This document shows positions 8,899 to 27,400 of a stretch of DNA of 64,000 bases, piece by piece. The stretch is from the NCBI GenBank assembly GCA_022712315.1, contig JALAGS010000080.1, forward strand, positions 21,209-85,208. Reading direction: 5' to 3'. The position numbers were made by a program, and so were the translations under genes. The DNA comes from Sphingobacterium sp. (GTDB lineage: Bacteria > Bacteroidota > Bacteroidia > Sphingobacteriales > Sphingobacteriaceae). Position 1 is the first letter of the stretch, and each line of letters opens with the position of its first letter. Below the pieces are notes generated by a model, which saw only the letters and a program-made list of their open reading frames with translations, searched no databases and was not told the origin of the DNA.

Positions 8899-10968
8899 TT
8901 GAGTATTCTAGATAAAAAACGTTATACCATCACATCGGCATTACCTTATGCCAATGGTCCTTTACATATCGGACACCTTGCCGGAGCTTATATCCCTGGA
9001 GATATCTTTGTTCGTTATCTGCGTCTAAATCAGAAAGATGTAGTCTATGTATGTGGTTCAGATGAGCATGGTGCGGCGATTACCATCCGTGCAAAAAAAG
9101 AGGGCATTACCCCACAGCAAATCATTGATAAATACAACAAACAAATCAAAGAAAGCTTTGAAGAGTTTGGCATTTCTTTCGATATCTATCACCGTACATC
9201 GGAACCTATCCATCATCAGTTATCCCAGGATTTCTTCTTGAACCTTTACAACAAAGGTGAATTTGTCGAGAAATTTTCCGAGCAATACTATGATGAGGAA
9301 TACCACCAATTCCTGGCAGACCGCTACATTACGGGAACTTGTCCAAATTGTAAGTCTGAAGGCGCCTATGGTGACCAATGTGAAAAATGTGGTACATCGC
9401 TAAGCCCGACAGATCTGATTAATCCGATTTCCACCTTAAGCGGAAAGACACCGGTTCTGAAAGAAACAAAACACTGGTATCTTCCTCTGGATAAATATCA
9501 GCCTTGGCTTGAAAAATGGCTGATCGAAGGAAAGAAAAATATGCTGAAATCCAACGTTTTTGGCCAATGTCAATCTTGGCTTAAATCTGGCTTACAACCA
9601 CGTTCAATGACAAGAGATTTGGACTGGGGGGTTGATGTTCCTTTGGCAGAAGCACAGGGCAAGAAACTATATGTATGGCTAGATGCACCGATAGGTTATA
9701 TTTCAGCAACAAAACAATGGGCTTTGGACCATGGCAAAAACTGGGAAGACTATTGGAAAACGCATGAAAATCCAGCAGACGATTCTACATTGATCCATTT
9801 TATCGGAAAAGATAATATTGTTTTCCACTGCATTATCTTTCCGGCAATTCTTCATGCGCACGGTGACTATATTTTACCAGAAAATATTCCTGCAAACGAG
9901 TTCCTTAACCTGGAAGGCGACAAACTATCTACTTCTAGAAACCATGCGGTTTGGTTACATGAGTACCTACAGGAATTCCCCGATAAACAAGATGAATTGC
10001 GTTATGTCTTGACTTCGATATTACCGGAAACATCGGATGCGGAGTTTACCTGGAAAGATTTCCAAGCTAGGATCAACAATGAGCTTGTTGCCATCTTCGG
10101 AAACTTTGTCAATCGGGTAATGGTGCTTTCGCACAAATATTTTGATGGCAAAGTATTGAATGGCTCACCATTAACAGCGGTAGATCAAGCGGTATTGGAT
10201 GAACTGAAATCATACCCTGCTTCGATCAAATCTTCTTTGGAGCAATTCCGTTTCCGTGAGGCTTTGGCAGAATTTATGAATGTCGCTCGTCTCGGCAACA
10301 AATATCTTGCAGATGAAGAACCATGGAAAATCATCAAAACAGATGAGGAACGTGTCAAAACAATCTTACATGTAGCTGCTCAGATCGTGGCCAATCTTGC
10401 TGTTCTTGCACAGCCGTTCTTACCAAAAACAGCGATCAAATTATTTGAAATGCTCAATTTCCCTCAAGGGAACTGGAATGATGCAGGGTCGGATACTTTG
10501 ATCCAAGCTGGACACCAATTGGGTGAAGTGCAATTGTTATTTGACAAAATAACCGATGAACAAGTCGACTTTCAGCTAAACAAACTTGCTGAAGCAAAAG
10601 CGAAAAACCTAGCCGACAACGCCAAGGTTGCTCCTGTAAAAGAAAACATCAGCTTCGATGACTTTGTTAAAATGGATATCCGTGTCGGAACTATTGCAGC
10701 CGCTGAAAAAGTTGCCAAAACCAAGAAATTACTAAAATTGACGATAGACACCGGCTTAGATACACGTACCGTCGTTTCGGGTATCGCGGAGTTCTTCAGT
10801 CCTGAGGAAATCGTAGGCCGTCAAGTATCCATCTTGGTCAATCTTGAGCCTCGTGAAATCAAAGGAATTATGTCACAGGGAATGATCCTGATGGCAGAAG
10901 ACGCTGATGGTCGACTTGATTTTGTCAAACCAGATACAACCATTAAAGTAGGAAGTACAGTACGCTAA
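8899..10968 (+). CDS. metG: Methionine--tRNA ligase with C-terminal tRNA-binding domain (TTG start)
   Basis: [13 protein letters not shown] (HIGH), Zn-knuckle CxxC, KLSTS (KMSKS), C-terminal DIRVG..SQGM OB-fold. Confidence 0.97.
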
Positions 10969-26001: not shown

Positions 26002-26427
26002 TTAATTAATTCTTTTCCATGTCTCTGTACGTCCAAGCAAGCTTACACCGACATATCCCCTGATATCAAGTTTATCCCCTTTTAAAGTCATCTTGCAGCT
26101 ATACGTTTTGCCCGACTTTGGATCATAAATCTTTCCATCCGCATAAGTATTGCCATCTTTTTCAAAATTGGTCAAGATTTCGAGCCCCTGTACATTTCTG
26201 CTCTGCAACGCTTTATCTGGGTTTTTTATATCTTTCTTTGGCTGACCTGCTTCGTTATTTGGAAATTTCAGCCAAAAGAGCTTACCAAAAAACTTATCGC
26301 CTTTCTTGTAAATTTCAACACGGCCCTCACCGCTTGGATTTTCCCACTTTCCGATAATGGGATCTGTTTGCGCAAATAATGCTACTGTTGTAAGCAACAT
26401 TATGAATGATAACATAACTTTCTTCAT
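26002..26427 (-). CDS. DUF2147 domain exported protein
   Basis: Signal peptide; IIGKW, GKIYDPKSGKTYSC, RGYVGVSLLGRTETWKR. Confidence 0.88.
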   Translation of the reverse strand: MKKVMLSFIMLLTTVALFAQTDPIIGKWENPSGEGRVEIYKKGDKFFGKLFWLKFPNNEAGQPKKDIKNPDKALQSRNVQGLEILTNFEKDGNTYADGKIYDPKSGKTYSCKMTLKGDKLDIRGYVGVSLLGRTETWKRIN

Positions 26428-26785
26428 GAGTCTATTTTTTATGAACTTAAATTCTTCAATCTATGACCTGAACTCTTTCCCATTTTTTCGCACCACCCCC
26501 ATCTAAATTCCTTGTTTAGTGTTCAGGTATCTCCCCTTATCCTTATCCAGCGCCGACCGCAACACTCCTGCTGGACAAACCGCCTAGCAGCTGATGATCA
26601 AAAGCTTGCACCATAGCGCTGAAATAAATATACAAAATATTTACTATGCTTGCATACATTTATTTTCTGTACACTTAATTTTCAAATAAACATAGCATCC
26701 ATTGCGGAACAATAGTTCACACAGACATGAAAAATGTAATGGCGCTTTTTTCGTTTACAAGTTAGCTCGCCACATGTGCGAACTG

Positions 26786-26977
26786 TTCGGGACAGCTTCG
26801 TCCTTTGCTCGCCTTTTGTTCGCCCCTGCTTCGGAAATTCTCTTATGTTTCTCTACAGATTCCCTACTGATGGCCTAACTGCCGGTAGAGAATCTGTAGA
26901 GAAAAGGTAGAAAATGGGTAGAGAATTTCCGAACAAGCTCCGAAGAAGGTCCGAACGGGTTACGAAGAACATACGAA
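26786..26977. repeat. Large imperfect inverted repeat with 11-bp periodic TTCG/CGAA and CTAC/GTAG cores
   Basis: TTCG-like at 26786, 26797, 26808 (CTCG), 26819, 26830; CGAA at 26930, 26941, 26952, 26963, 26974; GTAG at 26885, 26896, 26907, 26918; perfect 13-bp IR 26830-26842/26921-26933; inner 19-bp IR 26849-26867/26885-26903 with 1 mismatch. Confidence 0.9.
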
Positions 26978-26989
26978 GAGGCGTAAAGT

Positions 26990-27006
26990 TTGGCATCGGG
27001 TTTGCA
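26990..27006 (+). promoter_or_regulatory. Sigma54 (RpoN)-type -24/-12 promoter
   Basis: TTGGCATCGGGTTTGCA: GG (26992-93) and GC (27004-05) separated by exactly 10 nt. Confidence 0.65.
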
Positions 27007-27058
27007 CGAAACTGATTATATTATTACTTTATTTACTCTTTATAAATTAGCACATATT

Positions 27059-27400
27059 ATGAAATTTATTATTAGTCTTTTACTTACTGGAGTTGTCGTC
27101 GCGGTTGCGTGCTGGGTCGTACCCGGAGCTCATGTTGCTGGATTCGGCTGGGCTATCGTTACCGGACTTGTCATTGGATTTGTCAATGCGACTGTGGGAT
27201 CGATTTTAAGGTTATTTACTTTCCCATTGAATTGGCTTACACTCGGCCTGGTTTCGTTTATTATTACGGTATTAATGGTCTTGTTGACAGATTCGCTGCT
27301 CGGTTCCAAATTTGATGTAAATGGCTTTTGGACCGCTGCGCTATTTGCCATTGTCGTTGCCATATTGGAAATGATTATTGGCAGCACTTCAAAAGATTAA
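27059..27400 (+). CDS. YvlD/phage-holin-superfamily-IV membrane protein (no phage context)
   Basis: Start at ATG 27059; four TM segments; VPGAHVAGFGWA, VIGFVNATVGSILRLFTFPLNWLTLGL, FWTAALFAIV. Confidence 0.85.
   Translation: MKFIISLLLTGVVVAVACWVVPGAHVAGFGWAIVTGLVIGFVNATVGSILRLFTFPLNWLTLGLVSFIITVLMVLLTDSLLGSKFDVNGFWTAALFAIVVAILEMIIGSTSKD

Follow-up and report, generated by a model that had tools for sequence, protein, structure and literature searches.

The intergenic element at positions 26786 to 26977 of a 64,000-nt stretch of Sphingobacterium sp. DNA (GenBank assembly GCA_022712315.1, contig JALAGS010000080.1, positions 21,209 to 85,208 of the forward strand; hereafter, the window) is a member of a dispersed family of palindromic "phased-box" elements, in which short boxes recur every 11 nt. 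The host genome (G000; 6.19 Mb, 40% GC, with the window on its contig C35) contains runs of at least three TTCG/CGAA boxes at this period in 39 places, which form at least 25 loci, and four phased TTCG boxes are present in 61 of the 101 Sphingobacterium genomes sampled. We read the window element, with about an even chance of being right, as an orphan docking array for a winged-helix protein resembling Xis or BldC, gained and lost in the manner of repetitive extragenic palindromes (REPs) or miniature inverted-repeat transposable elements (MITEs).

Read across positions 26500 to 27300, the window has a TTCG / CTAC / GTAG / CGAA architecture in which every box falls on an exact 11-nt grid. The left outer array (26786 to 26840, forward strand, as are all four arrays) comprises five 11-nt units starting at 26786, 26797, 26808, 26819, and 26830, four of which carry TTCG and the third CTCG; it is followed by a left inner array (26842 to 26867) consisting of a degenerate unit and two CTAC units 11 nt apart (at 26853 and 26864). 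Beyond a central loop of 17 nt (26868 to 26884) lie a right inner array (26885 to 26929) of four (G)TAGAG-type units (at 26885, 26896, 26907, and 26918), one unit more than in the left arm, and a right outer array (26930 to 26977) of five CGAA boxes at exact 11-nt spacing (at 26930, 26941, 26952, 26963, and 26974). The inner units contain phased A-tracts, and two perfect inverted repeats join the arms, one of 13 bp (26850 to 26862 with 26890 to 26902) and one of 14 bp (26830 to 26843 with 26920 to 26933). The original prediction had described a symmetric array with these boxes and the 13-bp inverted repeat, non-coding, with outer spacers that are not complementary, and ending 13 bp before a sigma-54 consensus; each of these features is confirmed.

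The phased architecture is far beyond chance. Four phased CGAA boxes (period of 11 nt, at most one mismatch) match four times in the window, against 0.01 expected from shuffled sequences, and three phased GTAG boxes at the same period match twice, against 0.00. Genome-wide, runs of four TTCG/CGAA boxes (at least 15 of 16 letters over the four boxes) occur at 27 loci at period 11 versus 0 to 3 at periods of 9, 10, 12, and 13.

Members of the family and what they keep

Four subtypes (A to D) were distinguished among the copies in this genome. Type A is short and includes one copy between rpsO and pnp; the arrays of type B are long and asymmetric; type C, represented by 11 copies, has three TTCG(T/G)AC units, a 108-nt centre of TGNNCAG 11-nt units, and three mirrored units; and type D, the type found in the window, has CTAC/GTAG(AG) inner units. 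A second copy with inner boxes identical to those of the window element, and 72% identical to it, lies between convergent genes (C221:14379-14530). The copies are mostly intergenic, and spaces between convergent genes are over-represented (7 of 16 scorable loci, with genes around the elements called by a simple open-reading-frame heuristic); no arrays paired around a gene were seen in this genome.

The type-C copies reveal which features are kept. Across all 11, 65 of 66 outer boxes are intact, and centres and spacers are roughly 60 to 70% identical by eye. A hidden Markov model built from the type-C centre alone recovered precisely these 11 and added no degenerate ones, indicating that bias from the way in which copies were selected is small. 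Applied to the paralogues, RNAalifold gave a covariation term of +0.69 and a consensus energy of only −17 kcal/mol; that is, the arms do not covary. As such, the constraint among paralogues is on box identity and 11-nt phase and not on arm pairing, which speaks for individual recognition of each box, one per turn of the helix. The original prediction had named core identity and helical phase as the conserved features, and this holds; its suggestion of a phased, multisite protein-binding array fits the same conservation, and binding by a protein, the nature of that protein, and any influence on adjacent genes are inferences.

Within the genus, the number of matches to four phased TTCG boxes ranges from 0 to about 250 per genome, and a reversed-pattern control applied to the same sample returned approximately none. 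Phylum-wide, 17 of 401 genomes had any match, with low counts and, in some cases, plain tandem repeats. The family is, on these counts, essentially genus-specific and is patchy inside the genus. This pattern search, of the kind put forward in the original prediction, bears out its alternative of a dispersed palindromic family; no description of such a repeat family was found in the literature on Sphingobacterium repeats, GxxExxY, and DUF6266.

Two subtypes occupy leaders of recognizable operons. A type-A phased-box hairpin fills the rpsO-pnp intergenic leader (C125:116629-116760), a position that, in Escherichia coli, is taken by the RNase III-processed regulatory hairpin of pnp. Type-B arrays lie in a non-coding stretch of about 900 nt, a conserved leader in which one frame is open (C165:38800-39800, C154:16500-17650, and C231:925-1775), flanked on one side by an uncharacterised 124-aa gene and on the other by TlpA-like / SusC-like TonB-receptor operons, and long arrays are again found upstream of such operons in other species (G018, G159, and G163).

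The HTH_17-array-DUF6266 cassette

Clustering of the open reading frames near arrays at 41 loci from many genomes singled out DUF6266 (PF19781), a protein of about 215 aa whose gene adjoins arrays at six loci, of which three belong to other families within the class. In this genome, 11-nt arrays lie 150 to 400 nt upstream of all five testable DUF6266 loci, and their boxes vary: TTCG at three loci (on contigs C205, C239, and C1), TTCAGTGCTTG at a fourth (C209), and an inverted TTAGG/CCTAA set at the fifth (C188). At three of the DUF6266 loci of this genome, the array starts just after an HTH_17 gene, for which the PHROGs annotation is "excisionase and transcriptional regulator." The full cassette (C205:35392-39300, C239:40900-44650, and C1:50957-55797; also L398 and L401) is ordered LytTR-type regulator, HTH_17, a long array-bearing spacer, DUF6266 (one or two genes), a lysin (DUF5675/CHAP), and small membrane proteins. 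The HTH_17 proteins of these cassettes are encoded at C205:36542-36988, C239:43132-43515, and C1:53591-53896.

The order HTH_17, array, DUF6266 recurs in G011, G156, G167, G153, and G122, in Pedobacter, and in a metagenome genome. Arrays preceded by HTH_17 begin 5 to 25 nt past the HTH_17 stop codon, keep the 11-nt period, and have cassette-specific boxes; one in G167 consists of five TAGAG-N6 units, of the same kind as the GTAGAG units in the inner arrays at the window locus. G073 also has an 11-nt array upstream of DUF6266, and in G155 and its sister G187 an array lies about 250 nt upstream of DUF6266, where no adjacent HTH_17 gene was seen; this array is of the same subtype as the orphan copies that abound in these two genomes (see below). 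Across the genus sample, and uncorrected for shared ancestry, the presence of DUF6266 is associated with that of arrays (55/6/13/27, odds ratio of 19, P = 2e-9). The cassette, of which no description was found in the searched literature, may be a regulated lysis module or one derived from a phage.

Several other genes were considered as partners of the arrays and set aside. The REP-associated tyrosine transposase (RAYT) family (PF01797, Y1_Tnp) is unmatched in this genome, G155, and G187, and across the genus its presence is negatively associated with arrays (odds ratio of 0.22). The original prediction had connected the GTAG boxes with REPs and TnpA(REP), a connection that finds no support in this distribution or in the orthologous elements described below, which have lost their GTAG units. 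GxxExxY (TIGR04256 and PF13366) is likewise unmatched in this genome; its gene occurs in 8 of the 101 Sphingobacterium genomes, shows no association with arrays, and, in G068, lacks TTCG arrays at its flanks. PF05635 (the 23S-IVS protein family) was not found in this genome. DUF6266 itself was rejected as a mobilising enzyme: in its AlphaFold model (pLDDT of 82), the conserved N-terminus is disordered and two helices accompany an FN3-like beta-sandwich similar to phage tail or tip domains, with no nuclease or recombinase fold, and sequence searches of the PDB with DUF6266 and with the HTH domain returned nothing useful. In other genera of the same family (loci L045 to L060), inverted arrays with boxes such as CGCAAAG and CGCAGAG lie on both sides of GxxExxY (TIGR04256) genes; these arrays have a period of about 10 nt, whereas the family of the window element has a period of 11 nt and HTH_17 with DUF6266 as its recurrent neighbour.

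The window locus and its sigma-54 promoter

On its left, the window element is flanked by a divergent DUF2147 gene (26002 to 26427, reverse strand) and, on its right, by a yvlD-like gene of the holin family (Pfam Phage_holin_4_2; 27059 to 27400, forward strand). The latter is preceded by a sigma-54-type promoter, TGGCAT-N5-TTGCA (26991 to 27006, forward strand), which lies outside the element, with a gap of 13 nt between the last box and the consensus. Between the DUF2147 gene and the element is an intergenic block of about 40 nt (26625 to 26665) that is 87 to 98% conserved across Sphingobacterium species and contains the inverted repeat TATGC-TT-GCATA; this block could be the DUF2147 promoter, or it could be an activator-binding or upstream activating site of the sigma-54 promoter. 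The DUF2147 gene, the block, the promoter, and the leader are all conserved in relatives, and the spacer between block and promoter, which holds the element, is highly variable.

In the closest relative (L112), a segment corresponding to positions 26716 to 26979 is missing. These approximately 264 nt comprise the element and about 70 nt of sequence to its left; the flanks are 95 to 98% identical, and the empty site reads from ...ATAG straight into GGGCGTAAAG. Two other relatives (L113 and L117) have orthologous type-D elements that have lost the GTAG units and in which several boxes are mutated. Together, the empty site and the decayed orthologues indicate that the element was gained in an ancestor, was later lost at least once, and is decaying. 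The spacer (orthologous to window positions 26700 to 26985; compared at loci that include L010, L011, L120, and L134) holds another phased-box element or its remnant in G020, G018, and G017, an approximately 1-kb insertion sequence in G019, and a (CCAT)n microsatellite of variable length in G005, in L120, and in records of S. siyangense and S. multivorum. Judged from these alignments, the spacer appears to admit insertions freely and is a hot spot for them just upstream of the sigma-54 promoter.

The position of the element raises the question of whether it acts locally on the yvlD-like gene, either as a sigma-54 enhancer or as a bent or wrapped architectural element that aids looping between activator and promoter. 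Apart from the proximity of its end to a consensus promoter, this idea draws on the phased A-tracts of the inner units on the holin-family product of the downstream gene, and on the lysins and small membrane proteins that array-bearing cassettes encode. Nevertheless, the promoter is conserved in all Sphingobacterium relatives of the clade, whether or not the element is present: promoter and leader are both kept in relatives that lack it (L112, G005, G008, and G010), as they are where the spacer holds an insertion sequence or a microsatellite, showing that the element is not needed for the promoter. Nor does the element recur at other sigma-54 promoters, in that no sigma-54 site lies near any of the 22 other catalogued copies in the genome and the other three of its four strict sigma-54 sites are without an array. 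Moreover, sigma-54 activator sites usually lie about 80 to 150 bp from the promoter, placing an element 13 bp away closer than the usual range, and the orthologous copies are decaying. A local regulatory role, which the original prediction had raised in the form of an enhancer, is therefore very improbable, and the element should not be annotated as part of the sigma-54 promoter.

Readings of the phased-box arrays

The arrays resemble the operators of a set of small DNA-binding proteins. Recombination directionality factors (RDFs) and their relatives bind cooperatively to direct repeats at one-turn spacing and bend the DNA; among them, Apl binds five and seven repeats at 10- to 11-bp spacing and needs at least three adjacent operators (PMC7498355). 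BldC, a small winged-helix protein similar to MerR and Xis, binds variable numbers of one-turn direct repeats in a head-to-tail arrangement with few base contacts (PMC5859096). Similar to the operators of lambda Xis, 186 Apl, P2 Cox, and BldC, which have from three to seven or more short direct repeats 10 to 11 bp apart (PMC7498355, PMC5859096, PMC3936717), phased-box arrays have few specified bases per repeat and a variable number of repeats, and the window element exceeds three one-turn direct repeats in both outer arms (five units each) and in the right inner array (four units). An adjacent winged-helix gene, the other hallmark of these systems, is lacking at the window copy, whose neighbours encode the DUF2147 and holin-family proteins, and is present in the form of a small HTH gene only at the cassette-borne copies that HTH_17 precedes. 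The phased-box arrays depart from RDF and BldC operators in facing each other as palindromes of 150 to 200 bp, often with a second, inner type of box; in reaching 10 to 14 units; in occurring mostly as orphans, with up to about 120 copies per genome; and in having no integrase or attachment-site context that could be seen around them.

It is the match between phased boxes and this operator grammar, together with the cognate-looking HTH_17 gene adjacent to the cassette arrays, that leads us to read the family as docking arrays. Each arm is an array of 11-nt units, each occupying one helical turn and carrying one short conserved box, which is TTCG/CGAA in outer units and a subfamily-specific box in inner units (CTAC/GTAG(AG) in the case of the window element). 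A small winged-helix protein would dock on such arrays and, like Xis, Apl, Cox, and BldC, polymerise in a head-to-tail manner along one-turn direct repeats, the candidate binders being the HTH_17 proteins encoded directly upstream of the cassette arrays, and two inverted arrays would load two converging filaments that bend or wrap some 150 to 200 bp of DNA. Orphan copies would come and go in intergenic DNA after the fashion of REPs or MITEs, and the copy in the window sits in a permissive spacer between the conserved upstream block and a sigma-54 promoter that does not require it.

A number of observations weigh against this account. Docking leaves unexplained both the spread of orphan copies, for which no transposase or other mobilising enzyme was identified, and the inverted pairing of arrays: to our knowledge, RDF operators are single direct arrays, never long inverted pairs, and do not occur in tens to hundreds of dispersed copies. 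The filled and empty junctions of the window locus (at 26716 and 26979) exhibit neither a target-site duplication nor a terminal inverted repeat, and, to judge from the box decay in its orthologues, the window copy may no longer be bound by anything. With respect to the proposed binder, no HTH_17 or DUF6266 gene is present near the window copy or near most orphan copies, six array-bearing genomes have no detected DUF6266, several DUF6266 loci outside the Sphingobacteriaceae are without an 11-nt array, and shared ancestry could contribute to the association between DUF6266 and arrays within the genus.

The arrays could instead be purely selfish repeats of the REP, REPIN (paired REPs that form a hairpin), or MITE kind, mobilised as hairpins by a transposase or nuclease that recognises the TTCG boxes on a folded single strand, in which case the cassette would be either a favoured insertion site or the place where the mobilising gene resides. 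Much about the family is reminiscent of REPs, REPINs, and bacterial interspersed mosaic elements (BIMEs): the copies are dispersed, palindromic, mostly extragenic, and enriched between convergent genes; some species have none and others more than 100; in G155 and G187, where they are numerous, the copies are homogeneous and sit in mosaic clusters with other repeats; they coincide with assembly breaks; and folding energies of about −80 kcal/mol are predicted for both strands of the window element (z-scores of −4.7 and −5.3). The one clean difference in presence and absence at the orthologous locus also fits, but mobility in the strict sense, which the original prediction had envisaged as an alternative, would call for a target-site duplication and an enzyme, and neither was found. 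REPs are typically imperfect palindromes of 20 to 40 nt headed by a conserved GTAG, with a RAYT gene flanked by such repeats. By contrast, this genome is without a RAYT gene, as are G155 and G187, the units are phased 11-nt boxes and not GTAG-headed, GC-rich hairpins, and the GTAG units of the window, which head A-rich 11-nt units, are lost in L113 and L117. MITEs, for their part, are bounded by terminal inverted repeats and target-site duplications and share their ends with a related insertion sequence that is autonomous; none of these features emerged from the junctions of the window element or from the array pairs of this genome. Also telling against a selfish repeat are the lack of correlation between GxxExxY and arrays, the absence of PF05635 from this genome, the lack of any gene bracketed by an array pair, arms that do not covary and outer spacers that are unpaired in the window copy, and intact boxes in all type-C paralogues defined by their centres, which would be unexpected for neutral relics. 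On balance, we consider a purely selfish origin rather unlikely, though still a serious competitor to docking.

The predicted folding bears equally on whether the long hairpin functions as a structured RNA, either a small RNA or a cis-acting leader, a notion favoured by the stability of the hairpins on both strands and by the location of some family members in long 5′ leaders (in the rpsO-pnp spacer and upstream of TlpA-like / SusC-like operons). Searches of Rfam with the window, six other copies, and one G155 cluster, judged by both E-value and gathering threshold, produced only sub-threshold hits to generic miRNA hairpin models, the best scoring 22 bits against a gathering threshold of 90 bits, and thereby exclude the match to a known RNA family that the original prediction had listed as a possible refutation. 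In addition, the paralogues offer no compensatory support, the window copy is upstream of the sole recognizable promoter of its right-hand gene, and neither strand of so symmetric an element is preferred. A structured RNA is, accordingly, the most remote of the explanations considered here.

The docking-array reading has a more far-reaching variant, which stems from the regular spacing of copies in G155 and G187. Both genomes contain about 120 near-identical phased-box copies inside mosaic repeat clusters (located on G155 contigs C4, C6, and C7 and G187 contigs C1 and C2; an example is L224:9894-10050). The intervals between copies on four long contigs have a mode of 25 to 35 kb, and all 104 span at least 16 kb; their coefficient of variation is 0.27 to 0.64, versus 0.96 under random placement, and the chance of so large a minimum interval arising by random placement is below 5e-5. 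Intervals near twice the mode occur because the search patterns missed some copies. The two genomes are 93 to 95% identical and have their copies at orthologous positions, such that they count as one lineage, and the spacing was not replicated in an independent lineage, with G163 and G178 having only about 10 long arrays each. Possible causes of the spacing are an exclusion resembling target immunity, selection for spacing, or recombinational loss of close pairs. Based on this regularity, the palindromes might be genome-wide loading sites for a filament-forming winged-helix protein and might themselves either structure the chromosome or spread in a transposition-like manner with target immunity, a proposal that we regard as improbable; if it is true, the HTH_17-array-DUF6266-lysin cassette would be the home locus of the family. 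Should the spacing of about 30 kb hold up, it would point to chromosome organisation or target immunity, both of which would be unusual for elements of this size. The same mosaic clusters of G155 also contain canonical-looking REP doublets (L224:9569-9664 and 9775-9810), in which GTAG precedes a GC-rich palindrome, GGTCGAWGCATGCWTCGACC, even though G155 gave no match to Y1_Tnp.

The usual explanation for dispersed bacterial palindromes such as REPs, BIMEs, and MITEs is that a transposase acts on a hairpin. The family described here is unlike that picture in that its conserved features are short boxes locked to one helical turn, and a one-turn array with differing boxes recurs in an uncharacterised lysin cassette, directly behind an excisionase-like HTH gene. 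Both raise the hypothesis that proteins of the Xis/BldC type, capable of forming filaments, have genome-wide docking arrays in the Sphingobacteriaceae.

Arrays of the same period also occur in phages. Direct arrays of TTCG-N7 units with five phased boxes are present in at least 117 viral contigs, many from uncultured phages (loci L255 to L371; e.g., L258, L269, and L285), and in every case the array is direct. In 41 of the 117, the array is situated inside a lambda-O-like or DnaD-like replication-organiser gene beside a DnaB-like helicase gene, and these arrays are presumably origin iterons. The window element was considered as a set of lambda-O-type iterons and rejected, its neighbours being unrelated and its sequence non-coding; unlike the phage arrays, which are direct, lie within the initiator gene, and occur once per phage, it is inverted and dispersed. 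The viral arrays indicate, nonetheless, that a grammar of boxes repeated once per helical turn is widespread, though its context differs.

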